A stretch of DNA of 64,000 bases from the NCBI GenBank assembly GCA_047456315.1, contig CP179889.1:384776-448775 (forward strand), given 5' to 3'. The notes beneath the pieces were generated by a model. That model did no database searches. It saw only the letters and a list, made by a program, of their open reading frames with translations, and had not been told where the DNA came from. Every line of letters begins with the position of its first letter. Position 1 is the first letter of the stretch. Source of the DNA: Candidatus Nealsonbacteria bacterium (GTDB lineage: Bacteria; Patescibacteriota; Minisyncoccia; Minisyncoccales; JANBVM01). Shown here one piece after another: positions 3,511-46,753 of the stretch. The position numbers and the translations under genes were made by a program.

Positions 3511-4209
3511 TTATAGATTTACCCAATGAATCATTAATAAATTAAAATCAAAAATATCAACCTTTCCGTCGCTGTTAAAATCAGCAATATTATTTGTGCT
3601 TGTGCTTCCCCAGTTGACCATTAATGTATTGAAATCCAGAACATCAATCTTATCATCGTTATTGGTATCAACTGCCTGAGCATCTTCGCTAAGCTTACTG
3701 GTAGAGACAGGAGGAGTGTAGGTGCTACCGCCTCCACCTATCACTACTGGTGGAGTTATGTATTCTTCTTTATCACTAGTTCCTTTTAATGCAAGAGTGA
3801 AGGCGTATTCTCCTGGACAAAGATTTGAAGCAGTCTTTATTTTAAGATTTGATTGAGTCTCGCCCTTAACAATACTAAAGCCAATAAATACGAATTTATC
3901 GCCATTCCATTGCATTTTTGAAGTTTGACCATCATACCAAATGTCAATTCCTCCTATCTCAAAAGAATTTCCACAAATGCCTTGATAATCAATATCTAAA
4001 ATTGCTGTTCCAATAAGAATTTCACCAGTATTATTAGTAAGTTTCAGCTCAGCAACGCAACTATCACCGCTATATTGAATATCGCATTCTTTAGAAGATA
4101 GTTCTAAAATAAGTTTATCATTTTGAGCTTGGACAGAATAAACCCCAAAACAACCTCCTAAAAGAAAGGCTAAAAATAGAACTATTAAACTTTTTGATAT
4201 TTTATTCAT
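3511..4209 (-). CDS. secreted dockerin-domain protein, copy 1
   Basis: Signal peptide. C-terminus has two dockerin Ca-binding repeats: DTNNDDKIDVLDFNTLMVNW and DFNSDGKVDIFDFNLLMIHW. Confidence 0.75.
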   Translation of the reverse strand: MNKISKSLIVLFLAFLLGGCFGVYSVQAQNDKLILELSSKECDIQYSGDSCVAELKLTNNTGEILIGTAILDIDYQGICGNSFEIGGIDIWYDGQTSKMQWNGDKFVFIGFSIVKGETQSNLKIKTASNLCPGEYAFTLALKGTSDKEEYITPPVVIGGGGSTYTPPVSTSKLSEDAQAVDTNNDDKIDVLDFNTLMVNWGSTSTNNIADFNSDGKVDIFDFNLLMIHWVNL

Positions 4210-5722: not shown

Positions 5723-5857
5723 ATGGCAAAAAAACAGAAAAGAAAGAAGCTGACTAAACTAGTTGTGAAATTTGAACCGAGTTCTAATCATAAAGAAGAA
5801 TTTGCACAATTTGTAAATGATGTTTTGTCTAATAAAAATAATAAAAAAGAATTATGA
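5723..5857 (+). CDS. small basic protein coupled to recombinase (candidate accessory/RDF)
   Basis: MAKKQKRKK... 44 aa. Stop overlaps the recombinase ATG (ATGA at 5854-5857). Confidence 0.4.
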   Translation: MAKKQKRKKLTKLVVKFEPSSNHKEEFAQFVNDVLSNKNNKKEL

Positions 5858-7446
5858 AAAAAGTAGCTATCTATGTAAGGGTATCAACCCAAAGACAAAA
5901 AGATGAAAGGACTATTGAGAGCCAATTATCAGCATTGAGGGAAATCTGTAAAGACTTTAAAATAGTTAAAGAATATGTTGATGATGGTTGGAGTGGTGGA
6001 ACTTTAGCAAGACCCTCTTTGGATAAAATGAGAGATGACGCTAAAGAAGGTTTATTTAAGGCTCTTTACATTTACTCTGCTGATAGGTTGAGCAGAGACC
6101 ATCTTAACCAGCTCATAGTATTAAAAGAATTGGAAAAAGAAAAGATTGAAGTAGTCTTTAAGAATAGAGTATTAACAGAAGAAAATAAGCTCTTAACAGA
6201 TATTGAGAGCTTATTAGCTGAACACGAGAAAAAGCAATTTATGGAGAGAAGTCGCAGGGGCAAATTACACAAAGCAAAGAATGGGAAAATCATCAGGAGT
6301 TGTGCCTCTTATGGTTATAGATTTATTAAAGACAAGAAAGGGGAATGGCAGTTAAAGATAGAACCTGAAGAAGCAAAGATTGTAAAACTTATCTTCAGTC
6401 TTTATCTTGAACACCAGACCATTACTGGAACAAGCAAAGCATTTCATTCAAAGAAAATACGCTATGGGGATAATAAGATTTGGAGACCGCAGGGAATTGC
6501 CAGAGTTCTAAAGAATGAGACTTATGTCGGTAATTGGTATTATAACAAGACTAAAAGCTCCGAGCCAAAGAATAAGAGAATGAAGTTTAACAGAAAAGTT
6601 AAATCAAGCAAGGTAAAGAACGACAGGAAAGATTGGTTAATGGTTAAAGTCCCTGCCATAATTGACAGAGGAACATTTGATAAGGTTCAGGAGTTAAGGA
6701 AAAGGAATTTTAAACTCTATGGCGAAACAAAACAAACCTATCTTTTGGGTGGCTTGATGAGGTGTGGTAAGTGTGGCTCAAGAATAGTAGGGATTTGCCA
6801 TCGGAATAAGTATTTTTATTATGTATGTAGTTCAAAACCCAAGAGTTTTCCTGAAGTCTTTAAGTGTGATTTCAAAGCAATAAAGAAACAGGAGATTGAG
6901 AGCTTTGTTTGGAGTAAGATAAAAGAAGCATTACAGAATCCTAAAATCCTTTTTCAATATATTTTCCAATTAAAAAAAGGAGACAAGGATAGCCAGTCAT
7001 TAGAAGAATTAAAACAAGGATTACTGGAACATAAAGTTAATACAAGAAGAAAGAAAGATGAGGTGTGGCGACTTTGGGACATAGACCTTATGGGCAGAGA
7101 TGAATTTGAGGCAAAGATAGAGAACTATACTTTGATTGAAAGAGAAATTGAAAGAGACCTCAAGGGAATTGAAGTAAAATTGGCTCAAACTACTATTAAG
7201 CAGGATATAATCAGCAGTCTAAAAGAATTTGCCAGATTGACCAAAAATCAGCTTGACACATTGAAACCTAAGCAGATAAAGAAACTGCTTAGGAGCATTA
7301 TAAAGACGATTGATTATAATCCTGACACAAAGGCAATGAAAATAGTTGGCTATATCCCAATTACTAAGCCTTCTCCAAAGAAAATTAAGGAACTAATGAA
7401 GCTACCTATACCAACCTTTGACTTCGTCTCAACACAAGAAAAGTAA
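5854..7446 (+). CDS. large serine recombinase (phage-integrase type)
   Basis: Resolvase catalytic N-terminus VAIYVRVSTQRQ, recombinase domain, Zn-ribbon CGKCGSR...YYVCS, C-terminal coiled coil. 530 aa. Confidence 0.93.
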   Translation: MKKVAIYVRVSTQRQKDERTIESQLSALREICKDFKIVKEYVDDGWSGGTLARPSLDKMRDDAKEGLFKALYIYSADRLSRDHLNQLIVLKELEKEKIEVVFKNRVLTEENKLLTDIESLLAEHEKKQFMERSRRGKLHKAKNGKIIRSCASYGYRFIKDKKGEWQLKIEPEEAKIVKLIFSLYLEHQTITGTSKAFHSKKIRYGDNKIWRPQGIARVLKNETYVGNWYYNKTKSSEPKNKRMKFNRKVKSSKVKNDRKDWLMVKVPAIIDRGTFDKVQELRKRNFKLYGETKQTYLLGGLMRCGKCGSRIVGICHRNKYFYYVCSSKPKSFPEVFKCDFKAIKKQEIESFVWSKIKEALQNPKILFQYIFQLKKGDKDSQSLEELKQGLLEHKVNTRRKKDEVWRLWDIDLMGRDEFEAKIENYTLIEREIERDLKGIEVKLAQTTIKQDIISSLKEFARLTKNQLDTLKPKQIKKLLRSIIKTIDYNPDTKAMKIVGYIPITKPSPKKIKELMKLPIPTFDFVSTQEK

Positions 7447-7976
7447 TGAAGAAATTGGGTGTTTTTGATTTAGAAAACATGGAAATACCTCCTAGGATTT
7501 ATAACTTTGATGAAAGAAAATGGGTTAAAAAACAAATTCCAGATGGTAAATTTCTTAAAACAGCTTCAGTAACTGAATTCTTAGAAAGAGCTGACAAGTT
7601 AATACTCTTGCCTAATTTAAAAACTCATTCATACGCTCAATTTACCGGGGCATTAAAACTCTCAGTTGGTTTTATGAGGCCGATTGAAAGGGTTCGTTTA
7701 CACCTGAAGAATCTACAGGAGAAAATAGCTGAATTGAATAAATTGATTAACCCTCATCTAATAATTATGGATGGGAGAAAGTGCTTTATAAATAAAGGGC
7801 CAGCTTCAGGGGAATTAGCTGAGCCAAACTTAATCCTTGCTTCAGAGAGTCGAATAGATATTGACGTTGAAGGAATAAAAATAATCCAGAGTTTTAAAGG
7901 CAATTCTTTGAAAAACATTAATCCTTTAGAAATGCCTCAAATTAAAAAAGCAATAGAATTTGGAATTGAACAATGA
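7446..7976 (+). CDS. DUF362-family protein, C-terminal part only (possibly truncated by insertion)
   Basis: Matches the DUF362 C-terminal half (LLPNLKTHSYAQFTGALKLSVGF...IIMDGRKCFINKGP). The N-terminal part expected for the family is absent. ATG overlaps the recombinase stop (TAATG). Confidence 0.55.
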   Translation: MKKLGVFDLENMEIPPRIYNFDERKWVKKQIPDGKFLKTASVTEFLERADKLILLPNLKTHSYAQFTGALKLSVGFMRPIERVRLHLKNLQEKIAELNKLINPHLIIMDGRKCFINKGPASGELAEPNLILASESRIDIDVEGIKIIQSFKGNSLKNINPLEMPQIKKAIEFGIEQ

Positions 7977-9247
7977 GAAAAATTAATAAATTGTTTAAGA
8001 ATAGATATTTTGCAGCTTTTTTTATTTTTGCAATACTGTTTTTTTTAAAAGATTATTTAATTCCTTTGGAAGAATCTATTTCTTTACTGGAACAGGAATA
8101 TAAAACAGAAGAGGAGTATGGATTTAAAAAGGATCAAAATAAAGAGATTTTAGCTGATAAAGAGCTTTTACCTGCTACGATTGTGAAAACATCTACCTCT
8201 ACTGAAAGTGAAATTAAAAGATCAACCTTTAAGGCGCCAGAGATAGTAAAAGCAATTTATTTAACAAGCTGGTCAGCTGCCACTTCTTATAGGATAAATT
8301 ATGCCATTGACTTAGCTAAGAGCACAGAGATTAATGCAGTAGTTATTGATATTAAGGACTGGTCAGGACATATCAGCTATAATACTGAGGTGCTTGAAGC
8401 TCAAGAATATAATGCTGAGAGATTTTTAATAGCAGACGTTAAAGCGCTTGTTGAAAGATTTCACAAAGAGGGGATTTACACCATTGCCAGAATCACTGTT
8501 TTTCAGGACCCTGTTTTAGCCTGGTCAAGACCTGATTTAGCAGTCAGAAGAAAAACAGATAAGTCATTGTTATGGCTTGACAGGTCAGGATTAGCTTGGG
8601 TTGATCCTGCTGCTAAAGAATCATGGGATTATAATATTGCTATTGCTAAAGATATTTTAAATCAAGGTTTTGACGAATTGAATTTTGACTATATTCGTTT
8701 TCCTTCTGATGGTGATCTGAGCGATTTGAGTTTTTCTTTTTGGGACAGCACTAGCACTACAAGGGTTTCAGTAATTAGTGATTTCTATGCTTACTTAAGG
8801 GAAAAGCTTCCTGATGCTGTTTTGTCAGCTGATCTTTTCGGGCTTATTACAGAGAAATCTGATTTAGGTATTGGTCAGAAAATTGAACACGCTTATCAGT
8901 ATTTTGATTTTGTTTGTCCTATGGTTTATCCTTCTCATTATGCGCCAATGTATTTGGGTTATGAAAATCCTGCTGAGTATCCTTATGAAGTGATTAAAAA
9001 CGCAATGGAAAATGGTTTAATTAAACTTAATGCTTTTAGAAATACCACTTCAACAAAAGCCAAGCTGCGGCCATGGCTTCAGGATTTTGACTTAGGGGCT
9101 GATTATGGGAAAGAAGAGGTAAAATTAGAAATTAAAGCTGTTAAAGACGCCCTAGGAGATGATTTTTCAGGTTTTATGCTGTGGAGCCCAGATAATTTTT
9201 ATACCAAAGAAGCTCTTTCAGCGACAACCCAAGATTTATTTAAATAA
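7973..9247 (+). CDS. putative glycoside hydrolase-like protein (DUF4015/GHL family)
   Basis: N-terminal TM. TIM-barrel-like blocks INAVVIDIKD, YTIARITVFQD, NFDYIRFPSDG. Confidence 0.65.
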   Translation: MRKINKLFKNRYFAAFFIFAILFFLKDYLIPLEESISLLEQEYKTEEEYGFKKDQNKEILADKELLPATIVKTSTSTESEIKRSTFKAPEIVKAIYLTSWSAATSYRINYAIDLAKSTEINAVVIDIKDWSGHISYNTEVLEAQEYNAERFLIADVKALVERFHKEGIYTIARITVFQDPVLAWSRPDLAVRRKTDKSLLWLDRSGLAWVDPAAKESWDYNIAIAKDILNQGFDELNFDYIRFPSDGDLSDLSFSFWDSTSTTRVSVISDFYAYLREKLPDAVLSADLFGLITEKSDLGIGQKIEHAYQYFDFVCPMVYPSHYAPMYLGYENPAEYPYEVIKNAMENGLIKLNAFRNTTSTKAKLRPWLQDFDLGADYGKEEVKLEIKAVKDALGDDFSGFMLWSPDNFYTKEALSATTQDLFK

Positions 9248-9313
9248 TTTAACAGGGCTAAAATAGTGATTTTAAAATTGACATGAACTTCGAAAGTAAT
9301 ATAATAAAATATT

Positions 9314-9481
9314 ATGAAAAGAGAATTTACAGCAGTTTATAAAAAAAGTGGAAAATGGTATTTAGGATGGGTGGAAGAAATTCCAGGCGTAAATACTCAA
9401 GGAAAAACTCTTAAAGAAACAAAAGAAAACCTTAAAGAGGCGCTTTTATTAATTTTAGAAACCAACCGTTTCATTAATTAA
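9314..9481 (+). CDS. HicB-like antitoxin (UPF0150) small protein
   Basis: 55 aa, FTAVYKKSGKWYLGWVEEIPGVNTQGKTLKETKENLKEAL pattern typical of the HicB N-terminal domain. Confidence 0.55.
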   Translation: MKREFTAVYKKSGKWYLGWVEEIPGVNTQGKTLKETKENLKEALLLILETNRFIN

Positions 9482-9489
9482 AAAACAAT

Positions 9490-9777
9490 ATGCGGAAAAC
9501 TAATTTACAATTTAAACTTTCAGTTTCTATGTTGCGGGAAGGCAAAAGATTTATTGCCTACACACCAACTCTTGATTTATCCACCTCTGGTAAAAGTTAT
9601 AAAGAAGCGAAAAAGCGATTTATAGAAATCGTTAATATTTTCTTTGAAGAGCTTGTTAAAAAAGGCACACTAAAAGAAGTTTTACAAGACTTAGGATGGA
9701 AAAAAAGTCAAAAAGAGTGGGTTCCGCCAATACTTATTTCTCAAGAGTCTGAAACCGTTCAGATTTCAATGAAATAA
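9490..9777 (+). CDS. HicB-like antitoxin family protein
   Basis: FIAYTPTLDLSTSGKSYKEAKKRFIEIV resembles the UPF0150/HicB fold. Directly precedes the hicA remnant. Confidence 0.5.
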   Translation: MRKTNLQFKLSVSMLREGKRFIAYTPTLDLSTSGKSYKEAKKRFIEIVNIFFEELVKKGTLKEVLQDLGWKKSQKEWVPPILISQESETVQISMK

Positions 9778-23855: not shown

Positions 23856-24938
23856 ATGACTCTTTTTACTTTTAATGTAATTCGACTTTTAATATTATCA
23901 GTAATAAGCGCTGGAATTTCTTTTATTTGGGCGCCTTTTTTAATAAAGCTTTTAAGGAGAATTAAATTCTGGAAGAAAAAAGCTAGAACTAGAACAATAA
24001 CCAATGAAGAGGCCAAGGTTTTTTATTCTTTACACAAAGACAATAAAACAAAGGTGCCAAGAGGCGGTGGTCTTTTAATCTGGCTTTCAGTTCTTGCAAT
24101 GATACTATTGTTTTTTGCTTTGTCATATATTGATGATCCCTGGTGGCTGAAAAAAGTGAATTTTCTGTCTCGTAGCGAAACATGGCTTCCTTTGTTTGCC
24201 TTAGTTGCAGGTTCAGTTGTAGGATTAATTGATGACGCTTTAACTGTTTTCGGAAAAGGTAAATATGTTGGCGGAGGAATGAGTTTTATAAGAAGATTAA
24301 TGATTGTTATTTTAATAGGATTAATTGGCGGCTGGTGGTTTTATGTTAAGCTTGCCAAAAACACAATTCACATTCCTTTGATATATAATTTTCCAGAAGG
24401 AATAAACTTTCTTATTGGTTGGTGGTATATTCCTTTGTTTGTTTTGGTGATGCTTGCCTCCTGGGCAGGAGGTGTGATTGACGGGATAGATGGCCTGGCA
24501 GGAGGAATTTTTGCTTCAATCTTTGCTGGTTTTGCTGTTATTGCTTTTACTCAACAAAAAGCTGATTTAGCAACGTTTTGCGCAATAATTTCTGGAACTT
24601 TATTTGCTTTTTTATGGTTTAACATACCTCCAGCTAAATTCTATATGGGAGAAACAGGTGTTTTGGGCTTAACCTCAACAATGACAGTGGTTGCTTTTTT
24701 AACTGATTCAATAATGGTTTTGCCAATTATTGCCGGGATCATTGTAATTGAGGTTGGTTCAATAGTAATTCAGCTTTTGTCTAAAAAATTTCGGGGTAAA
24801 AAAATATGGCTTTGCACTCCAATCCACCATCATTTTGAAGCAAGAGGCTGGCCGTCATATAATGTGACAATGAGGTTTTGGCTTTTGAATTTGGTTTTTG
24901 TGTTTTTAGGAGTAGCAATTAAGCTTTTTGCAGGTTAA
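23856..24938 (+). CDS. mraY: phospho-N-acetylmuramoyl-pentapeptide transferase
   Basis: Polytopic protein with MraY blocks (VPRGGGL, DDALTV, GVIDGIDGLAGG, HHHFE). Confidence 0.92.
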   Translation: MTLFTFNVIRLLILSVISAGISFIWAPFLIKLLRRIKFWKKKARTRTITNEEAKVFYSLHKDNKTKVPRGGGLLIWLSVLAMILLFFALSYIDDPWWLKKVNFLSRSETWLPLFALVAGSVVGLIDDALTVFGKGKYVGGGMSFIRRLMIVILIGLIGGWWFYVKLAKNTIHIPLIYNFPEGINFLIGWWYIPLFVLVMLASWAGGVIDGIDGLAGGIFASIFAGFAVIAFTQQKADLATFCAIISGTLFAFLWFNIPPAKFYMGETGVLGLTSTMTVVAFLTDSIMVLPIIAGIIVIEVGSIVIQLLSKKFRGKKIWLCTPIHHHFEARGWPSYNVTMRFWLLNLVFVFLGVAIKLFAG

Positions 24939-24942
24939 ATAT

Positions 24943-26334
24943 ATGAAACCAGTGGTCTTGAGAAAAAAATACCCTAAGTTTGTTTATGTTGGGTACTCAT
25001 ACAAGATTTCAAACAATAATTTGGAAATTTTTTTTGATTTTAAAATTGAACCGGATATTGTTTTTAAACCAAAAATAACTATTGAAAACATTAATAAAAA
25101 CAATCTTGAGAAAATAGGGAAAAGCGTATTAAATAACCTAGTGTTTAATTTAGGATTGATTGAAACGATAAGCTACTGGAAAGCAACATGTTCAGAAGAG
25201 ATTGAAATTAGAGCTGGTAGTTTAAATAAAGAGCAAATTAGGTGGTTCAAAGATTTAATAACAAATGGAATGGGCCAGTTTTTTTATGAAAACAAACTTA
25301 GTTTTAAAATTGTTGATTCTTTGAAAATTATTTCGAAGAATAATAGAGTAAAAGATTCTGAGATTTTTAAACAAAAATTAAGCAATCAAATCTTAATTCC
25401 AATAGGAGGAGGCAAAGATTCAATAGTGGGCTTGGAAATTCTTAAGAAATCAAAATGTCCTTTAACTTGTTTTTCATTAAATCCGACTGATAATGCTAAA
25501 AAAATATTAAAGGTAGGTGGCTGTAAAGAACCAATTATTGTTAAGCGGAAAATTGATCCTAAATTGCTCGAATTAAACAGAAAAGGTTTTTTAAACGGTC
25601 ATACTCCGTTTTCAGCTTATTTAGCTTTTTTAACAATTTTAATTGGTGTGATTTATGATTATAAGTACATTGCTTTTTCAAATGAAAGAAGTTCAAATGA
25701 GGGAAATGTAAAGTATTTAGGAAAAACTATTAATCATCAATATTCAAAAAGCTTTGATTTTGAAAAGAAATTCAGAAATTATTCAAAAAAATATTTAGCT
25801 CAAGATATTGAATATTTCAGTTTTCTAAGGCCTTTATATGAAATTCAGATTGCAGCGTTATTTTCTAAATATTTTAATAAATATGGTAATCTTTTTTTAA
25901 GCTGTAATGAAGCTTATAAGACATATTCGGGAAAAAGAAGACCAATTAAAAAGTGGTGTGGTAAATGCTCCAAATGCTTGTTTGTGTTTTCAATTTTATA
26001 TCCATTTATTGAAACTAAAAAGCTGATTGAAGTTTTTGGAAAAAATCTTTTTGAAAGTAAAGAATTAGTTGGTTTAATGAAAGAATTAATAGGGGAGAGT
26101 AAGTTCAAGCCTTTTGAGTGTGTTGGCACAAAAAAAGAAAGCTTAGTGGCTTTCTACTTAAGTTTGAAAAAAGCCAAAAAAGAAGAAAAGAAACTGCCTT
26201 ATCTTTTAAAATATTTCGAAAAGTATACATTAGCAAAACGTTCTGGGTTAAAAAAAGAATCAGAAAATATAATGAATTCTTGGAACAAAGAACATGTTTT
26301 ATCTAAGAGGTTTACAAAATACTTAAAAACTTAA
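24943..26334 (+). CDS. PP-loop ATPase in dcw cluster, MurL-like (putative UDP-MurNAc-L-Ala-L-Glu epimerase)
   Basis: PP-loop IPIGGGKDS, CGKCSKC motif, about 460 aa. Sits between mraY and (after an insertion) murD. Family assignment is an inference. Confidence 0.5.
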   Translation: MKPVVLRKKYPKFVYVGYSYKISNNNLEIFFDFKIEPDIVFKPKITIENINKNNLEKIGKSVLNNLVFNLGLIETISYWKATCSEEIEIRAGSLNKEQIRWFKDLITNGMGQFFYENKLSFKIVDSLKIISKNNRVKDSEIFKQKLSNQILIPIGGGKDSIVGLEILKKSKCPLTCFSLNPTDNAKKILKVGGCKEPIIVKRKIDPKLLELNRKGFLNGHTPFSAYLAFLTILIGVIYDYKYIAFSNERSSNEGNVKYLGKTINHQYSKSFDFEKKFRNYSKKYLAQDIEYFSFLRPLYEIQIAALFSKYFNKYGNLFLSCNEAYKTYSGKRRPIKKWCGKCSKCLFVFSILYPFIETKKLIEVFGKNLFESKELVGLMKELIGESKFKPFECVGTKKESLVAFYLSLKKAKKEEKKLPYLLKYFEKYTLAKRSGLKKESENIMNSWNKEHVLSKRFTKYLKT

Positions 26335-26488
26335 AGTTCTTTAATAATAAATTTGTTGCTTTACAGGTAAGTATGTAGTCTTGACAAGTAAACGTTTTAA
26401 AAGAGATAATGAAAGTGATAAAAGGTCGATAACAATTAAGTGATTTTAATAATTAAGAAATCGCTTTTTTTTAATTATTATTAAAAAT

Positions 26489-27037
26489 ATGGTAGCAGAG
26501 ATTTTACAATTTTTGGCAGATTGGGGTTTTACAAAAGAAGCTATAATGCCATTATTAGTTCTTGGTTTACTTGCTTATCTTTTATTTACAAAGAAATTAA
26601 ACAAATTATTAAATCCAATTAAGTTTGCAATAGTTGAAATTCAAACCATATTTAAAATCAATAAAATACCACTTGAACATTACTTAGCAGCGACAAGTGA
26701 TAGTCCATTAAAACCAACAGAATTTGGTTGGAAATTACTCAAAGAAAGTGGTTTAAATGAGTTATTGGAAAAAAAGCAAGAATATTTTTTAAAAATTCTG
26801 AATGATAAATTAAAAGACATCACACCTTATACTGATTATGATGTTCAAGAAAAAGCAATTGAGTCATTAGTTGAATTAAAAAATGAACCAATAATAAATC
26901 CCATTAAAGACTACGCATTTCAAAATGGTATTGACGTAGAAGTAATTTTAAGAACAGGAGGATTAGTTCTAAGAGAAAAATATTTTAAGAAATATCCAAA
27001 GAATATCAAAAATGAAAAAAACGAAGTAAGTGTTTAA
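26489..27037 (+). CDS. hypothetical membrane-anchored protein
   Basis: 182 aa with an N-terminal TM segment and no recognised motif. Confidence 0.45.
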   Translation: MVAEILQFLADWGFTKEAIMPLLVLGLLAYLLFTKKLNKLLNPIKFAIVEIQTIFKINKIPLEHYLAATSDSPLKPTEFGWKLLKESGLNELLEKKQEYFLKILNDKLKDITPYTDYDVQEKAIESLVELKNEPIINPIKDYAFQNGIDVEVILRTGGLVLREKYFKKYPKNIKNEKNEVSV

Positions 27038-27066
27038 AAAGCAACTTCCAAAAGAAGTTGCTTTTT
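27038..27066 (+). terminator. intrinsic terminator
   Basis: AAAGCAACTTC-CAAAA-GAAGTTGCTTT stem-loop plus T-run. Confidence 0.75.
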
Positions 27067-27067
27067 G

Positions 27068-27080
27068 AGTTATCCACAGT
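27068..27080. repeat. left 13-bp terminal inverted repeat AGTTATCCACAGT
   Basis: Perfect inverted copy at 27496-27508. Contains the DnaA-box consensus TTATCCACA (27070-27078). Confidence 0.8.
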
Positions 27081-27086
27081 TGATCC

Positions 27087-27116
27087 TTGTATTGTTTTCT
27101 TGAAATGTGGTATAAT
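27087..27116 (+). promoter_or_regulatory. extended -10 promoter inside IR-bounded element
   Basis: TGgTATAAT at 27108-27116. Weak -35 TTGTAT at 27087-27092. Confidence 0.5.
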
Positions 27117-27185
27117 TTTCTAATGAGTATTGGTGGGTCGACAATAACTTATTAAAAATTAAAATCACAGGCCGTTTAAGAGTTT

Positions 27186-27301
27186 AAGCTTCTTATTTCG
27201 AAAGTGGGTGTTAGAGGTTAAGACCACTAATACTCAATAGTGTATGGCTTGTTGATTTAATAAGTTATACCTCTAATATTCACTTTCAAGGTAAGAAGTT
27301 T
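27186..27301 (+). ncRNA. long imperfect hairpin RNA (about 33-bp stem)
   Basis: Arms 27186-27218 and 27269-27301 pair with 7 G:U wobbles and 1 mismatch. The wobbles work only for a plus-strand transcript. A T-run follows. Confidence 0.5.
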
Positions 27302-27367
27302 TTCTTTAAAATCAAAACAAAAAATGCCCCCAAGTTTGAAATTAAGAACATTTTTTGTCTAATCATT

Positions 27368-27454
27368 GGAGAGGTATAAAGGTAAATGGCACCCCTTCTT
27401 ATTAACAATAAGTAAACCGTCTAGGTTTTATGGGTTCAAATCCCATCCTCTCCG
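27368..27454 (+). ncRNA. tRNA-like structure (Ser-type acceptor/T-arm, aberrant D and anticodon arms)
   Basis: GGAGAGG/CCTCTCC acceptor stem with G discriminator. ATGGG-TTCAAAT-CCCAT T-arm. AAACC/GGTTT long variable arm. No canonical 7-nt anticodon loop or D-stem. Confidence 0.4.
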
Positions 27455-27495
27455 TACGTCTTTTAATATTACCACAAGCCTTGTCAAGATACTAG

Positions 27496-27508
27496 ACTGT
27501 GGATAACT
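27496..27508. repeat. right 13-bp terminal inverted repeat ACTGTGGATAACT
   Basis: Reverse complement of 27068-27080. Lies 35 nt upstream of the transposase ATG. Confidence 0.8.
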
Positions 27509-27542
27509 AAAGACTACCACAATCACTAAAGCTGTCAACAAT

Positions 27543-28451
27543 ATGCGATATACATATAAACAATTTCAAAAGGATTTCCCAGGCGACAACGCCTGTTTAG
27601 AATACATTTTCAAGGCTCGTTTTGGGAATAATCCAACCTGTCCAAAATGTGAAAAATTAAATTCTTTTTACAAGGTCGGTAAGAGAAGGGCTTATGCCTG
27701 TTCCTGTGGTTATCAAATTTATCCAGCCGTTAACACTATTTTTAATAAATCTTCAACCAGTTTAATCAGCTGGTTTTTTGCTATTTATTTAATGAGCTCT
27801 GCTAAGAATGGAGTATCTGCTAAAGAACTACAAAGGCATTTAGGAGTTAGTTATAAGACTGCTTTAAGAATGGCTCATAAGATAAGGAGTCTAATGAAAC
27901 AAGATAATTCAATGTTAGAGGGAGTAGTTGAAATTGATGAAATGTATGTTGGAGGTAATCCATATAGAAATTTAAGAAAAAGATATATTAAAAAAACTCC
28001 TGTAATCGGAATAGTAGCTCGTAATGGTAAAGCAAAAGCAGTAGTGGTTGAGGAAGCAGATACAAGAAGTGCTTTTAAATTATTAAAGGATAATGTTAAA
28101 GTTGGTTCTAAAATAATGAGCGACGGCTCGCGTCTTTATAGAAATAAACTTGAAAAGCTGGGCTTTAAGCACAGCATTGTGAAGCATAGTGAGAATGAAT
28201 ATGTTAGAGGAGATGTTTACACTAACAGCATTGAACAGTTCTGGAGTCAGATTAAAAACTCAATCAGAGGCACTTATCATTCTGTAAATCCTAAGTACCT
28301 GCAGACTTACGTCGACGAGTTCGTCTACCAGTATAACCACCGCACTTTGAAGAATTCCTCTTTGTTTGAGACTTTGCTTGTCCGCCTTTGCCCACAGCAC
28401 GGCTTAAAAGAGAATGAAAGCGTCGCTTGGTGGTCGTTGGTTTCTTCATAG
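27543..28451 (+). CDS. IS1595-family (ISXO2-like) transposase
   Basis: N-terminal transposase Zn-ribbon (CPKCEK...YACSCG), then a DDE_Tnp_IS1595 pattern (VEIDEMYVGG, MSDGSRLY, TNSIEQFWSQIK, YLQTYVDEFVYQYNHR). Confidence 0.9.
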   Translation: MRYTYKQFQKDFPGDNACLEYIFKARFGNNPTCPKCEKLNSFYKVGKRRAYACSCGYQIYPAVNTIFNKSSTSLISWFFAIYLMSSAKNGVSAKELQRHLGVSYKTALRMAHKIRSLMKQDNSMLEGVVEIDEMYVGGNPYRNLRKRYIKKTPVIGIVARNGKAKAVVVEEADTRSAFKLLKDNVKVGSKIMSDGSRLYRNKLEKLGFKHSIVKHSENEYVRGDVYTNSIEQFWSQIKNSIRGTYHSVNPKYLQTYVDEFVYQYNHRTLKNSSLFETLLVRLCPQHGLKENESVAWWSLVSS

Positions 28452-28525
28452 TTTTATTTTAACATCTGATAAGAAAAAATAAAAGTCGAAGAATTTATAA
28501 ATAACTTTAAAAAATAATCAATAAA

Positions 28526-28663
28526 ATGGATTCATACACAAAAGAAATAATCGTTGCTTACTTTAAAGGCGGAAATGCACAAGATAGTGGAGTAGAAAGG
28601 ATTAAGCAAGTCTTGAAAGTAATAAAGGAAGTGGTTGAAGAAGAAGAAGAAGAAAGAGAATAG
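28526..28663 (+). CDS. small acidic protein (45 aa)
   Basis: ATG 28526, TAG 28661-28663, followed by a strong terminator. Confidence 0.3.
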   Translation: MDSYTKEIIVAYFKGGNAQDSGVERIKQVLKVIKEVVEEEEEERE

Positions 28664-28675
28664 CTTTTAACTATC

Positions 28676-28704
28676 AGTCCCCGAAAGGGGGCTTTTGGTT
28701 TTTT
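28676..28704. terminator. intrinsic terminator (GC-rich tetraloop hairpin)
   Basis: AGTCCCC-GAAA-GGGGGCT followed by T-runs. Sits between convergent ORFs. Confidence 0.7.
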
Positions 28705-28705
28705 C

Positions 28706-29260
28706 TCATATTTTTATATTAAAATAATTAAGAAATAATTGGAGTAATAGACCACCGAGAACACCAAGAAGAAAAACAGATAATTTAGAATTTTCTCTTA
28801 AAAGTGCTTCTATAAATCCCAATAGTTCCCTTAATCTTTCTCCCTTTGGTTCAATTGTTAATAGGGTATTGTCCGTAAGCGGAAATGATTCAGAAGTATC
28901 TCTTTTAATATATTTATCACTCAAGCAATGTCTAATAATTTCTTCGTTTCTATAACGAAGATTGCTTAAATAGTCTTTATCAAAAATCTTCACAACTAAT
29001 ATTTTAAAATTGATTATACGAAGGCTAAATTTGGATTTAGTGGGAAAGAACTCTTTCTGCCATAACCAGTCTGAAAATTCTTTTAAAGAAACTCCTTTTG
29101 TCCTGTATCTGTATTGGTTTATTAAACCACGCTTCTCTTTCCAAATTAACCTATGTAATTTATTAACAATATGACGTTCTTTGAAAATCAACATAATTTT
29201 CTTTATTATATCAAAAACACCTTTATGTGTCTTTTTCTTTTTTACTTGTTGTGAATACAT
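28706..29260 (-). CDS. hypothetical protein with C-terminal TM segment
   Basis: ORF-track frame. Internal ATG at 29260 (MYSQQVKKKK) preferred over the hydrophobic 5' extension. Confidence 0.35.
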   Translation of the reverse strand: MYSQQVKKKKTHKGVFDIIKKIMLIFKERHIVNKLHRLIWKEKRGLINQYRYRTKGVSLKEFSDWLWQKEFFPTKSKFSLRIINFKILVVKIFDKDYLSNLRYRNEEIIRHCLSDKYIKRDTSESFPLTDNTLLTIEPKGERLRELLGFIEALLRENSKLSVFLLGVLGGLLLQLFLNYFNIKI

Positions 29261-29339
29261 ACTTACCGCTTTACATGGTTTGACAGATTTATTTGAATTA
29301 TGTATAACATAAACAGCACATAATTTTACAAATAGAAAA

Positions 29340-29740: not shown

Positions 29741-31057
29741 ATGAAATTAAAAAATTTAAAGAATAAAAAAATACTGATTCTGGGTTTAGGCATAGAGGGC
29801 ATGGATAACTTAAAGTTTTTAACAAAAACCTTTCCTGGTGAAATCATTGCGGTGGGTGATAGGTTAGAATTTGATGATTTAAATCCTGCAGCTAAAAAAA
29901 TAATTAAAGAAAGAAAAAAGCTCAGGCTTCATCTAGGAAAAAGTTATCTTGAGTTTTTAAAACACTATGATGTAATAATTAAATCTCCCGGAATTTCACC
30001 CAGTACTCTAAAGCCATTTTTAACTAAAAAACAAACTATTACTTCTCAAACAGAGATTTTTTTTAATAACTGCCCAGGCAAAATTATTGGCATCACAGGG
30101 ACAAAGGGAAAAAGCACCACCACCTCTTTGATTTATGCAATTTTAAAAGAAAATGGCATTAAAGCTTATTTGGGAGGCAATATTGGCAAGCCAGTATTGT
30201 CTTTTCTTGAATCTAGCAAGCCAGAGAATGTGTATGTTTTTGAGCTTTCCAGCCATCAGCTCTTAAATCTTAAAAAAAGCCCTCATATTGCTGTTTTTTT
30301 AAACATATATAAGGAGCATTTGGATTACTATGATGGGTTTAAAGAGTATATATCAGCTAAAAGCAATATCTTGCGTTATCAGAAAAAAAGCGATTATTTG
30401 ATATTTAATTCAAAGAATAAGCTGGTAAACAAAGAAGCAAAGAAATCAAAAGCTAAGAAAATCCCTATTGATTCAGTTAAAATTAAAAAGATTGATACAT
30501 TATTAAAAGGTGATTTTAATGTTTTTAATATTAAAGCTGCAATTGCTGTGGCAAGGTTGTTTGATCTCCAGGATAAAGATATCTTAAAAAGCATTAAAAA
30601 GTTTAAATCCCTAAAGCACAGATTAGAATATATTGGAACATACAAAGGAATTAAGTTTTATAATGATGCCTTGTCAACTGTTCCAGAAGCAACAATTGCA
30701 GCGCTTGATGCTTTAGGAAATAATGTTGAGACAATATTTTTAGGGGGATTAGATAGAGGAATAGATTTTAAAGGTTTAGCTAAAAGGATTTTAAAAAGTA
30801 AAATCAAAACTTTAATTTTATTCCAGACAACAGGTGATAAAATCTATAGGCAGATCGTTGCTTTAGATGATAATAAAAAATACAAAGCAATTTTAGTGCA
30901 AAACATGAAAGACGGAGTGGATATGGCTTTTAAGTATACGCAAAGAGGAAAGATCTGCCTTTTATCGACTGCTTCACCAAGCTTTAACTTGTTTAAGGAC
31001 TATAAGGAGAAAGGTAATTTGTTTAAAAAATACGTCAAACTTTATGGCAAGCGCTAG
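29741..31057 (+). CDS. murD: UDP-N-acetylmuramoylalanine--glutamate ligase
   Basis: ILILGLGIEG N-terminus, GITGTKGKSTTTS P-loop, Mur ligase C domain. Precedes ftsW-murG. Confidence 0.9.
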   Translation: MKLKNLKNKKILILGLGIEGMDNLKFLTKTFPGEIIAVGDRLEFDDLNPAAKKIIKERKKLRLHLGKSYLEFLKHYDVIIKSPGISPSTLKPFLTKKQTITSQTEIFFNNCPGKIIGITGTKGKSTTTSLIYAILKENGIKAYLGGNIGKPVLSFLESSKPENVYVFELSSHQLLNLKKSPHIAVFLNIYKEHLDYYDGFKEYISAKSNILRYQKKSDYLIFNSKNKLVNKEAKKSKAKKIPIDSVKIKKIDTLLKGDFNVFNIKAAIAVARLFDLQDKDILKSIKKFKSLKHRLEYIGTYKGIKFYNDALSTVPEATIAALDALGNNVETIFLGGLDRGIDFKGLAKRILKSKIKTLILFQTTGDKIYRQIVALDDNKKYKAILVQNMKDGVDMAFKYTQRGKICLLSTASPSFNLFKDYKEKGNLFKKYVKLYGKR

Positions 31058-45669: not shown

Positions 45670-45683
45670 AGCGAGGGGAGTGC

Positions 45684-45711
45684 TTGACACCGTGTTTTGG
45701 CACGGTACAAT
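45684..45711 (+). promoter_or_regulatory. sigma70-like promoter facing the tyrosine recombinase gene
   Basis: TTGACA 45684-45689, 16 nt spacer containing the palindrome ACCGTG..CACGGT, TACAAT 45706-45711. Confidence 0.6.
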
Positions 45712-45723
45712 ATATATAGATAT

Positions 45724-45736
45724 AATGTCGCACAAT
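45724..45736. repeat. 13-bp inverted repeat AATGTCGCACAAT (right)
   Basis: Reverse complement of 45193-45205. Lies 13 nt downstream of the -10 element. Confidence 0.75.
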
Positions 45737-45796
45737 GATGGTAAAGCGACATATAATATATATAAATTAGACCACTTCCCTAAAAGCCCTAAAAAA

Positions 45797-46753
45797 ATGA
45801 AAAAATCAAAGACCCCAATAATAAGCCATATTTCTGATTTCTTAGATTATTGTGAAGTTGAAAAGGGTTTATCTGATAAAACCCAAGAAAATTATAAAAG
45901 ATATTTAAATAAATTTGTTTTTTGGTTAGAAAAGGCAAAAAATGAAAAACTACTGCCCCATCAATTAACAGCTGATCATATTTGGAAGTATCGCCTATTT
46001 CTATCTCGTTTTAATACATATAAAGGTAAGCCACTTAAGAAAATCACCCAAAACTACTATCTTATCGCTCTCAGGGCCTTTTTAGGCTATTTTTCATCAA
46101 AAGACATACAATCACTTCCTGCAGATAAGATAAAGCTTCCCAAAGACGCTAAAAGGGATAAAGCTATTAAATTCCTTAATTTAGAGCAAATTGAAAAGTT
46201 TTTAAAGTCCCCTAGTCATAACACTAGAATTGGCTTAAGAGATAAGGTTATTTTAGAGTCATTATTTTCAACAGGTCTTAGAATTGCAGAGCTTGTTGCT
46301 TTAAATAAAGAGCAATTCTCTAATGTCCAAAAAAAGAAAGATTTAGAGCTTTCAGTTATTGGCAAAGGTGGATCTGCTAGAACAGTATATTTTTCAGAAA
46401 GAGCATTAGATTGGGTTAAAAAATATTTAGATTCACGTAAAGATAAAGAAAAAGCTTTATTCATTCATTATAGAGCTAAGAAAGGTTCAGATAGTCGACT
46501 TACCTCTCGTTCCATTCAAAGATTAGTTAAGAAGTATGCAATTTTATCTGGAATTCCAGTTTTCACTACCCCGCACACACTTAGGCACTCAATGGCAACT
46601 GATCTATTAAACCAAGGAGTTGACTTAAGGACTATTCAAGAATTTTTAGGCCATAGAAGTATTACCTCTACTCAAATCTACACTCATGTGACAAGTAAAC
46701 GTTTAAGAGAAATTCATCGTAAGTTCCATAGTGGCAAGAGATTAAAAGGATAA
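45797..46753 (+). CDS. tyrosine recombinase, XerC/XerD-like
   Basis: N-terminal SAM-like domain (FLDYCEVEKGLSDKTQENYKRYL). Catalytic region RIAEL, HTLRHSMAT, LGHRSITSTQIYTH. The ORF-track GTG start overlaps the promoter, so ATG 45797 is preferred. Confidence 0.9.
   Translation: MKKSKTPIISHISDFLDYCEVEKGLSDKTQENYKRYLNKFVFWLEKAKNEKLLPHQLTADHIWKYRLFLSRFNTYKGKPLKKITQNYYLIALRAFLGYFSSKDIQSLPADKIKLPKDAKRDKAIKFLNLEQIEKFLKSPSHNTRIGLRDKVILESLFSTGLRIAELVALNKEQFSNVQKKKDLELSVIGKGGSARTVYFSERALDWVKKYLDSRKDKEKALFIHYRAKKGSDSRLTSRSIQRLVKKYAILSGIPVFTTPHTLRHSMATDLLNQGVDLRTIQEFLGHRSITSTQIYTHVTSKRLREIHRKFHSGKRLKG

Follow-up and report, generated by a model that had tools for sequence, protein, structure and literature searches.

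The DNA analysed here, which we call the window, is a stretch of 64,000 nucleotides (nt) from a Candidatus Nealsonbacteria genome (contig CP179889.1, positions 384,776 to 448,775). In its cell-wall and division gene cluster, between mraY (ending at 24938) and murD (starting at 29741), both recognized from the translations of the open reading frames (ORFs), lies a 2,902-bp transposon of the IS1595 family that spans positions 26366-29267. A repeat search revealed terminal inverted repeats of 27 nt that are 85% complementary and each begin GGTAAGTA, both ends of the transposon being GG-initiated, and directly outside both repeats there is a perfect 8-bp target-site duplication, GCTTTACA. The transposase matched PF12762 over the full profile length (2.3e-35) and PF12760 (6.8e-10), and scored 191 bits with NF033547 (cut-off 75). 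Between its repeats the transposon also carries passenger ORFs and, upstream of the transposase gene, a 441-bp segment (27068-27508) with a long hairpin and a tRNA-like gene. The features are collected in Table 1. The original prediction had treated this segment as an element bounded by 13-bp inverted repeats, MITE-like (miniature inverted-repeat transposable element) or a small mobile RNA gene, or else as a transposon-associated structured RNA. We conclude that the segment is an internal passenger module of the IS1595-family transposon and no mobile element in its own right. The annotation is corrected to match: the moving unit is 26366-29267, not 27068-27508.

Table 1. Features of the IS1595-family transposon and of the RNA module that it carries (positions in the window; IRL and IRR, left and right terminal inverted repeat; aa, amino acids)
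Feature	Position	Strand	Basis
Left target-site duplication, GCTTTACA	26358..26365	.	8-mer identical outside both repeats
IRL, GGTAAGTATGTAGTCTTGACAAGTAAA	26366..26392	+	Repeat search; fits consensus derived from L003/L001
Inward promoter within IRL region, TTGACA-18-GATAAT	26381-26410	+	Promoter scan, 11/12
Passenger ORF, 182 aa, hydrophobic N-terminus	26489..27037	+	ORF list
Terminator hairpin of the 182-aa ORF	27036-27066	+	13-mer arms 27036/27054
Left box AGTTATCCACAGT, holding perfect DnaA-box 9-mer TTATCCACA	27068..27080	+	~9 nt upstream of P1 -35 region
P1, extended -10 promoter TGGTATAAT for hairpin small RNA	27108..27116	+	Sequence; conserved in relatives
Long imperfect hairpin, 33-nt lower stem arms 27186-27218 / 27269-27301, then U tract	27186..27308	+	Folding, repeat search
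Conserved spacer with small hairpin 27317-27326 / 27349-27358 and promoter P2	27317..27363	+	Aligns with L001 (82% BLAST match 27297-28701)
Putative promoter P2, ending 4 nt 5' of the tRNA-like RNA	-35 TTGAAA 27336-27341; -10 TCTAAT 27358-27363	+	By-eye reading
Class-II tRNA-like gene, long variable arm	27368..27454	+	Rfam RF00005; homologues; stem covariation
Transposase promoter TTGTCA-N17-TAACTA	27481..27509	+	By-eye comparison of upstream regions
Right box AGTTATCCACAGT, reverse complement, over spacer and -10 of transposase promoter	27496..27508	-	Sequence
IS1595-family DDE transposase, 302 aa, N-terminal zinc ribbon	27543..28451	+	Pfam PF12762, PF12760; NCBIfam NF033547
Passenger ORF, 45 aa (28526-28663), and intrinsic terminator (28676-28693 and T run)	28526..28698	+	Kept in L001, L292; terminator scan
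Passenger ORF, ~184 aa from a Met inside IRR, C-terminal hydrophobic helix	28706..29260	-	Weak positional homologues
IRR	29241..29267	-	Repeat search, consensus scan
Right target-site duplication, GCTTTACA	29268..29275	.	Identical 8-mer

The ends of the transposon were placed with a consensus of the inverted repeats taken from a comparison of occupied and empty sites at two loci, L001 and L003 (the L-numbered loci are contigs traced from transposase homologues). These two genomes are syntenic, carry the transposase at different places, and each provides the empty site for the other. The L003 element starts with GGCAAGTATCCCTTGACGACAGGTAAGT, has an inverted copy of this sequence at its end and lies between the two copies of the 8-bp duplication TTTAATCC; in L001 the ends are of the same type and the 8-bp duplication is TTTGCTGT. 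When the window was scanned with the consensus, exactly two matches were obtained, IRL on the plus strand and IRR on the minus strand, and the same consensus is present in L001, L003, L086, L166, L169-L171 and L293. The duplications GCTTTACA, TTTGCTGT and TTTAATCC are mutually unrelated sites. An empty site for the window insertion itself was not found, and the proof from empty and occupied sites comes from L001 and L003. Set beside the ends of these other IS1595 copies, the 13-bp repeats proposed as termini in the original prediction are unrelated to the true 27-bp ends.

The IS1595 family includes the passenger-carrying 'transporter IS', with ISfinder subgroups such as ISSod11, ISNwi1 and ISNha5. 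The window element resembles these in its zinc-ribbon DDE_Tnp_IS1595 transposase, its GG-starting inverted repeats, its 8-bp duplication and the extra genes between its repeats, and by all the criteria tested it is an IS1595-family transposon with passengers. It differs from them in that its passengers include a hairpin small RNA and a tRNA-like gene. The searchable literature holds no report that links IS1595 elements to tRNA-like or other structured RNA passengers, nor one of such genes in Patescibacteria, in agreement with the original prediction, which knew of no described IS1595-linked RNA of this kind.

The module is carried by five closely related transposons, those of the window, L001, L002, L169 and L292, and is complete in four of them, the L292 contig being truncated. 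Relative to the window, transposase identity is 92% in L001, 87% in L292, 83% in L002 and 77% in L169. L001 and the window have 27062-27116 and 27297-28701 in common (BLAST; 91% and 82% identity) within unrelated genomic contexts. The order of the parts is the same in the four complete modules. A box of the AGTTATCCACA type (none in L002) is followed by an extended -10 promoter, a leader and a hairpin of 105-125 nt with a T run. Then comes a spacer with the motif AAAACAAAAA; within it are a small hairpin and another promoter, and 4-5 nt separate the -10 of this promoter from the 5' end of the tRNA-like gene. Behind this gene lie a U-rich trailer, the promoter TTGTCA-N17-TAACTA overlapped by a second box (absent in L169), and the transposase gene. 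In L002, L169 and L292 the tRNA-like gene stands 27-104 nt upstream of the transposase gene. The distance between the AAAACAAAAA motif and the transposase gene is unchanged in L001, L002, L169 and L091, and the stem of the small spacer hairpin is retained between the window and L001 through a T-A to C-G change. The protein cargo beside the module varies among the elements, and L169 has none.

The module is absent from L003 (transposase 81% identical) and from every relative at <=66% identity that was examined, and in the module-less relatives the transposase promoter, TTGACA-N17-TATAAT, starts inside the left terminal repeat. Genome and metagenome contigs were scanned for more copies, and among the matches listed there were only relatives at <=54% identity, all of them without the module; two pattern scans of viral contigs returned unrelated sequences only.

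The first RNA of the module would be transcribed from P1, an extended -10 promoter lying where the original prediction had put it; its equivalents are TGGTACAAT in L001, TGGTATTAT in L169 and TGATAAAAT in L002. The hairpin and U tract that follow resemble a terminator and are predicted to form the 3' end of a small RNA about 185 nt long. The 33-nt arms of the lower stem are 79% Watson-Crick, and in an ungapped register they form 26 Watson-Crick pairs, 6 G:U pairs and one C-A mismatch, so that the stem originally predicted stands, together with its preference for the plus strand, and only the count of seven G:U pairs falls. On folding, the hairpin reached -49.6 kcal/mol on the plus strand and -30.2 kcal/mol on the minus strand, with 11 versus 3 G:U pairs, and the whole 441 nt gave a folding z of -6.9. 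A hairpin of the same shape, with a U tract, occupies the same position in L001, L002 and L169 in unrelated sequences (z = -4.1 to -6.6 for the four elements). Between the window and L001 no similarity of the hairpin sequence is detectable, though the flanking promoter and spacer align. The sense strand is consistently the more stable and the richer in G:U pairs across the four elements. Hairpins of unrelated sequence at one position, combined with the G:U excess on the sense strand, indicate that a plus-strand hairpin RNA is under selection for its shape, as judged by folding models. The transposon-associated structured RNA named among the original alternatives is thus borne out as a plus-strand structured region linked to the IS1595 transposase.

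As a candidate terminator the hairpin is unusual. A T run follows it in 4/4 elements, and its stem is far longer and more A/U-rich than usual; the consensus terminator scan does not list it because its apical region exceeds the loop limit of that scan (3-8 nt). When Rfam was searched with E values up to 10, the part of the 441 bp outside the tRNA-like gene gave noise only, and the same held for L001, L002 and L169; the known family (tRNA) covers 87/441 nt, which answers the original question of a match to Rfam for this portion and leaves the remainder without one. A search for antisense targets of the hairpin RNA within each transposon yielded A/T-rich matches of 9-11 nt only, none of them positionally equivalent, and the sequence or complement shared by the hairpin RNA and the tRNA-like RNA amounted to 10 nt in the window and to none in the other elements. 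In the window, segments of the leader are complementary to the apical hairpin (27120-27136 / 27224-27240, 17 nt, 88%; 27144-27156 / 27256-27268, 13 nt, perfect), and by this pairing the RNA may take up a second fold resembling an attenuator. A minus-strand ORF for a small toxin (27286-27348) was considered and ruled out, since reading of the alignment revealed no conservation in L001.

The second RNA has the form of a class-II tRNA. The window copy, detected as a tRNA-like fold in the original prediction, has the acceptor stem GGAGAGG/CCUCUCC, G73, the anticodon loop UUAACAA (anticodon AAC), no encoded CCA and an irregular D region. It scored 30.6 bits with the Rfam tRNA family RF00005, barely over the gathering score of 29, and its homologues in L169, L002 and L292 scored 56.7, 50.0 and 43.8 bits. 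For the L001 copy the best Rfam match was tRNA-Sec, at 36.2 bits and below the threshold of 47, and ARAGORN calls this copy a tRNA. In the window ARAGORN called neither a tmRNA nor a standard tRNA, and with relaxed thresholds it made many false calls and still missed the window copy.

Pair counts were made on five copies aligned by hand on the cloverleaf, MAFFT having misplaced the 5' halves, and no covariance model was built. The acceptor, anticodon and T stems are paired at 83/84 positions (n=5), and 12 of the 17 pairs vary in a compensatory manner. In the anticodon stem 24/25 positions are paired over the five copies, and the stems of the variable arm, of 4-7 bp, are fully paired in 5/5. 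All five copies have the 7/5 acceptor/T layout, GG in the D loop, a TTCRAWT T loop and no encoded CCA, and every anticodon loop is of 7 nt with the form Y-U-NNN-A-A. Invariant throughout are G1-C72, G2-C71, A3-U70 and G73, the acceptor pairs 4-7 being variable.

The anticodons are AAC in the window, UUA in L001, UAU in L002 and L169, and CCA in L292; a serine anticodon (NGA or GCU) was found in 0/5 copies. The serine identity set, consisting of the long variable arm, G73 and G2-C71, is present in 5/5. Serine identity is independent of the anticodon: seryl-tRNA synthetase (SerRS) ignores it, so that a tRNA-Ser with an altered anticodon inserts serine at the corresponding codon, and G73 is an anti-determinant for the leucyl- and tyrosyl-tRNA synthetases, LeuRS and TyrRS (PMC9976931). 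The anticodon stems of the copies are 0-70% identical to each other (mean about 33%), against 65-78% at the third codon positions of the transposase genes. The tRNA-like stems and anticodon thus turn over faster than neighbouring synonymous sites. By way of comparison, tRNAs are among the slowest-evolving genes. A complement of the anticodon loop that could act as a kissing loop or specifier was found in two elements, those of the window and L001, and is lacking in L002, L169 and L292. At L001 (4793-7113) three credible transposon genes end in TGA, TAG and TAG, and the anticodon UUA of the same element would read UAA. The window element, with anticodon AAC, likewise ends its transposase gene and 45-aa ORF in TAG, and a link between stop codon and anticodon is unproven.

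The 13-bp perfect inverted repeats that flank the two RNAs are present as first reported, AGTTATCCACAGT and its reverse complement, each with the DnaA-box 9-mer TTATCCACA. Two perfect copies of the 9-mer and no others occur in the 64-kb window; the 13-mer, searched for over the same range, is found at its two sites only, with no third copy 3' of the transposase gene, as the original prediction had stated. The inverted repeat extends to 16 nt at 94% complementarity. Among the relatives, the left box is GAGTTATCCACAGTTGA in L001 and, with one change, AGTTTTCCACAG in L169, and it is absent in L002; the right box is conserved in L001 and L002, occurs in L292 as TGTGGATAAAG and is missing from L169. 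Across 868 kb of IS1595 loci, AGTTATCCACA has 6 occurrences versus 0.4 expected, the distant element L127 being among the loci that have it. What gives the 13-bp repeat its meaning is solely that relatives keep the box at these two places and that AGTTATCCACA is in excess. Both boxes coincide with promoter regions, and we read them as putative operator sites at promoters, not as transposition ends. The promoter under the right box is the positional equivalent of the TTGACA-N17-TATAAT promoter that module-less relatives have in or just inside IRL. A look near dnaA-dnaN in L003 for the host's own DnaA boxes, with which these could be compared, yielded none. In Tn5/IS50 a DnaA site lies in the transposon ends (PMC3347997). 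The window element resembles it in having a DnaA-box-like 9-mer built into a transposon control or end region, and differs in that its boxes are internal, at two promoters, with a perfect TTATCCACA inside a longer conserved 11-mer; binding of DnaA to them is putative.

Taken together, the observations are best explained by a transposon-borne passenger module of two RNAs. The tRNA-like RNA would have a promoter of its own, with transcription beginning at the RNA's 5' end or right beside it, and the transcript may run on into the transposase gene, which is possible because no terminator lies between the two. Enzymes of tRNA metabolism would recognise the RNA, carrying out 3' processing and CCA addition and, most likely, charging by SerRS. 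Given such recognition, and a synthetase that ignores the anticodon, the RNA could act as an orphan serine-type tRNA presenting a non-serine anticodon. Its role might be that of a low-level missense or nonsense decoder, or of a tRNA mimic kept from bulk translation. The boxes would be operators bound by the host's DnaA or, just as possibly, by the DNA-binding domain of the transposase itself, and would couple expression of the RNAs and the transposase.

These statements differ in strength. We hold with high confidence to the structural ones, namely the boundaries of the transposon, the conserved two-RNA module, structural selection on both RNAs, the serine marks, the variable anticodons and the boxes at promoters. 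The explanation as a whole, a two-RNA passenger module with the tRNA mechanism deduced for it, has about an even chance of being right. The serine-type orphan tRNA mechanism, taken by itself, is tentative and somewhat more apt to prove wrong than right.

Several points weigh against the explanation. The window copy was rejected by ARAGORN, and its Rfam score is hardly above threshold. Nucleotide 8 is not conserved (U, C, U, U and A in the five copies), and a regular D stem (GCA/UGC) is confined to three of them, those of the window and L001 being irregular. In the window copy, moreover, four nt separate the acceptor stem from the D stem, and the anticodon stem is weak and contains a U-U mismatch; given this stem and its irregular D region, the window copy is probably the least tRNA-competent of the five. 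An efficient serine-charged decoder of UAA or AUA should be very harmful to the host, and host genes near the L001 copy end in TAA in 9/11 cases. We infer the expression, processing and aminoacylation of the tRNA-like RNA from its sequence. P1, P2 and the transposase promoter were read by eye and are missing from the list of the consensus scan. Neither box is universal, L002 lacking the left one and L169 the right one, and 13-nt inverted repeats within 600 nt are at chance level (16 13-mer pairs versus 4.3 per Markov-simulated window of 32% G+C). Finally, there are only five copies, four of them complete, from about three independent lineages.

The closest known relatives in kind are the allo-tRNAs, serine-type tRNAs of which many have non-serine anticodons, UAU being the commonest, and which are linked to transposons and of doubtful use in translation (PMC5389517, PMC7609411). 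The tRNA-like genes share with them the long variable arm, G73, diverse non-serine anticodons with UAU the commonest, and destabilised variants (PMC5389517), as well as the transposon link, which in allo-tRNAs extends to toxin-antitoxin loci, and the doubtful use in translation. In E. coli, allo-tRNAs of the most abundant class (UAU) showed no activity in translation (PMC5389517), a further point against a decoding role. However, allo-tRNAs are defined by an 8/4 or 9/3 acceptor/T layout (12-bp branch), whereas the layout here is 7/5 in 5/5 copies, and an eighth acceptor pair is impossible in the copies (e.g., U-U in the window, U-C in L002). Because they fail the defining layout, the tRNA-like genes were not classed as allo-tRNAs. 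They differ also in their hosts, which belong to the candidate phyla radiation, and in their setting, an IS1595 transposon of defined extent in which they have a hairpin RNA as partner and promoters flanked by boxes. A second likeness is to anticodon-variant tRNA-Ser mistranslators and to suppressor tRNAs on mobile elements or phages, which also combine a tRNA-Ser body with another anticodon; the UUA of L001 is the anticodon of an ochre suppressor. In contrast to these, closely related copies here do not share one anticodon, and part of the core is irregular. No need for recoding is visible, because all the transposon ORFs are intact in the standard code.

If the module were instead a cis-acting control region of the transposase gene, the hairpin with its U tract would shield that gene from transcription coming from outside, the tRNA shape would serve as an RNase P/Z processing or stability signal at the 5' end of the transposase mRNA, and the anticodon would be meaningless. 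RNase P and RNase Z require only the acceptor-T minihelix and the elbow. Such a role would suit the lack of a terminator between the tRNA-like RNA and the transposase gene, the end of P2 4 nt before the tRNA 5' end, the attenuator-like pairing of leader and apical hairpin, the free variation of the anticodon, and the transposase promoter in or just inside IRL of the relatives that lack the module. Nevertheless, the anticodon stem (24/25), the 7-nt loop with U33, A37 and A38, and the variable arm have been kept despite complete sequence turnover, and the contrast between the invariant first three acceptor pairs with G73 and the variable pairs 4-7 fits recognition by a synthetase better than punctuation. 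The ORF upstream, moreover, already has its own terminator. We consider control in cis unlikely, although it deserves to be kept in mind.

The two RNAs could also form a selfish or defensive cassette, in which a harmful mis-decoder is held in check by the hairpin RNA (addiction), or in which nucleases attacking class-II tRNAs or anticodon loops are diverted by the tRNA-like RNA as a decoy, its fast-changing arms reflecting an arms race. Both RNAs are hypervariable when elements with about 82-91% identical flanks are compared, and allo-tRNAs are found near toxin-antitoxin systems, two UAU variants having killed E. coli (PMC5389517). In L001 an NYN-domain ORF directly precedes the module, an insertion with a Schlafen/AlbA_2-type ATPase adjoins the transposon, and the three credible genes avoid the TAA that the tRNA-like RNA would read. 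What speaks against a cassette is that complementarity of the hairpin to the tRNA-like RNA, to the anticodon loop or to other transposon genes never holds across elements, that the neighbouring protein cargo differs between elements and is absent in L169, and that TAG stops also occur in the window element, whose anticodon is AAC. This explanation is quite doubtful.

A serine-type tRNA kept for its shape has further to be distinguished from a captured tRNA-Ser gene that is decaying as a pseudogene next to an ordinary, oversized terminator. The window copy by itself would fit such a fate, with its 30.6 bits, its rejection by ARAGORN, its irregular D region and the U-U mismatch in a weak, A/U-rich anticodon stem; random drift would yield non-serine anticodons, and related transposons carry other tRNAs as simple cargo, such as the tRNA(CCU) of L003. 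Decay at this divergence would, however, break the stems, yet 83/84 positions are paired by way of compensatory changes; L002, L169 and L292 score 44-57 bits as tRNAs; and the hairpin has kept its shape and position in four elements without sequence similarity and with a strand-specific G:U excess. A non-functional module is therefore improbable.

The independent MITE-like element or small mobile RNA gene ending at the 13-bp repeats can be set aside with little hesitation. A perfect 13-bp inverted repeat does bracket the RNAs, as in MITEs, which are likewise small and non-coding with inverted repeats on both sides, and both copies of the repeat are conserved in L001. But the flanks ...GCTTTTTG and AAAGACTA... 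share no target duplication; the 13-mer is unlike the parental 27-bp terminal repeats; the segment is a single copy within the 64-kb window; L002 and L169 keep the RNAs with one box missing; homology between the window and L001 continues through the transposase gene to 28701; and an inverted repeat of 13 nt is at chance level in the window. Slightest of all is the prospect of a transposase guide RNA of the bridge RNA or omega RNA type, or of an origin-like DnaA-box cluster, which is suggested by a structured non-coding RNA directly upstream of the transposase gene and by two perfect DnaA-box 9-mers, and is opposed by the absence of any match of >=9 nt between the RNAs and the reconstructed window or L001 target sites (longest 8 nt, A/T-rich), by the nature of IS1595 enzymes as DDE transposases with 8-bp duplications at unrelated sites, by the presence of two boxes only and no AT-rich unwinding region, by the failure to find dnaA among the window ORFs tested, and by a skew change at ~48 kb, beside an Xer-like recombinase, that looks terminus-like.

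Class-II tRNA bodies with non-class-II anticodons were also encountered at 4/160 distant IS1595 loci (L127, L134, L154 and L155). L127 (1152-3714) holds a distant IS1595 element with a transposase 37% identical and inverted repeats at 1152-1175 and 3691-3714. Inside these repeats, on the minus strand (1314-1527), a long hairpin of ~100 nt lies directly upstream of an 86-nt class-II tRNA(UGU) with an 8-bp acceptor (allo-tRNA-like). The window module is built in the same way, except that in L127 the hairpin and tRNA lie on the opposite strand from the transposase gene. L127 has AGTTATCCACA boxes at 1183 and 2422, one 7 nt inside the left terminal repeat and the other 5 nt upstream of the -35 of the transposase promoter. 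The bodies at L134 (4377-4472, 96 nt, anticodon GCG, Arg), L154 (2508-2593, minus strand) and L155 (2101-2185, minus strand; both with anticodon UGG, Pro) are of 85-96 nt, with a long variable arm, 6-bp anticodon stems and Rfam scores of 56-59 bits; they lie within about 1 kb of distant IS1595 transposase genes. These four loci suggest that the association between class-II tRNAs and IS1595 may be general. One may go further and speculate, with considerable reserve, that a self-contained RNA cassette is being spread by IS1595 transposons: its tRNA, chargeable with serine and quick to switch its anticodon, would be a mobile codon-specific mis-decoder, a source of stop read-through or a decoy for tRNA nucleases, gated by the hairpin RNA and by DnaA-box operators linked to the replication state of the host, and the allo-tRNA-like genes near the distant transposases (L127, L134, L154, L155) would be the same phenomenon in other phyla.

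Other RNA genes were seen beside related transposases. In L091 (transposase 48% identical) a AGTTATCCACA box at 185-195 heads a homologous leader, and a T run with a AAAACAAAAAAC spacer (408-430) precedes the transposase gene by 251 nt, the tRNA being absent; just 3' of the transposase gene lies a LOOT RNA (1596-1703; RF03000, 55.9 bits, threshold 46.4). The sister IS1595 transposon of L003 (5926-7942; duplication TTTAATCC), like those of L004 and L005, has no upstream RNA module. Its well-formed 73-nt tRNA(CCU), 3' of the transposase gene (7636-7708), has promoter-like sites of its own and an Rfam score of 55 bits; as a homologue of the module it was ruled out, for the flanks fail to align. 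At L001 the NYN-domain ORF 5' of the module is of the RNase type, and the second insertion (7841-9731), which encodes a Schlafen/AlbA_2 and HATPase_c_4 protein, splits an LTD-domain gene adjoining the transposon. The place of this insertion resembles a hotspot at which accessory or defence genes gather.

Regarding the protein passengers of the window element, Pfam and NCBIfam gave no match to the 182-aa ORF; a homologue in L002 is 27% identical, and another, at 56%, is present without the transposon. Database searches with the 45-aa and 182-aa ORFs returned only the source genome and one unlinked homologue. The minus-strand ORF has homologues at the equivalent position in L169 (67%, over the available part only) and in L170 and L171 (25-27%). 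The 182-aa and 45-aa ORFs are identical to the NCBI proteins ACKKMW_02270 and ACKKMW_02285 from a Ca. Nealsonbacteria metagenome-assembled genome; there are two locus tags between them, where one protein gene, that of the transposase, is expected, and the depositors' pipeline may have annotated an RNA gene there. Outside the transposon, an ORF of 468 aa (24928-26334) without a Pfam match stands between mraY, whose end it overlaps, and the transposon, and is an unusual member of the cell-wall cluster. Farther away, a large serine recombinase with Resolvase, Recombinase and zinc-ribbon domains (5854-7446) follows an intergenic gap of ~950 bp, and the Xer-like tyrosine recombinase (45680-46753) is near a change of sign of the GC skew at ~48 kb that looks like a replication terminus.

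New here is a serine-type tRNA-like gene that evolves fast, travels on a transposon and is accompanied by a hairpin RNA and by putative operators resembling DnaA boxes. A tRNA-shaped gene on a transposon keeps its serine marks and yet changes its anticodon between near-identical elements, while the DnaA-box-like operators and the hairpin RNA, conserved in shape and free in sequence, are further parts that can be tested. The unexplained observations on allo-tRNAs and 'irregular tRNAs' would gain a concrete vehicle, the IS1595 transposons, and an experimental handle. If the tRNA-like RNA is unused in translation, it would be a clean, delimited case of a mobile element that has recruited a tRNA mimic; if it is charged and used, transposons would carry ambiguity of the genetic code in the small genomes of bacteria of the candidate phyla radiation.

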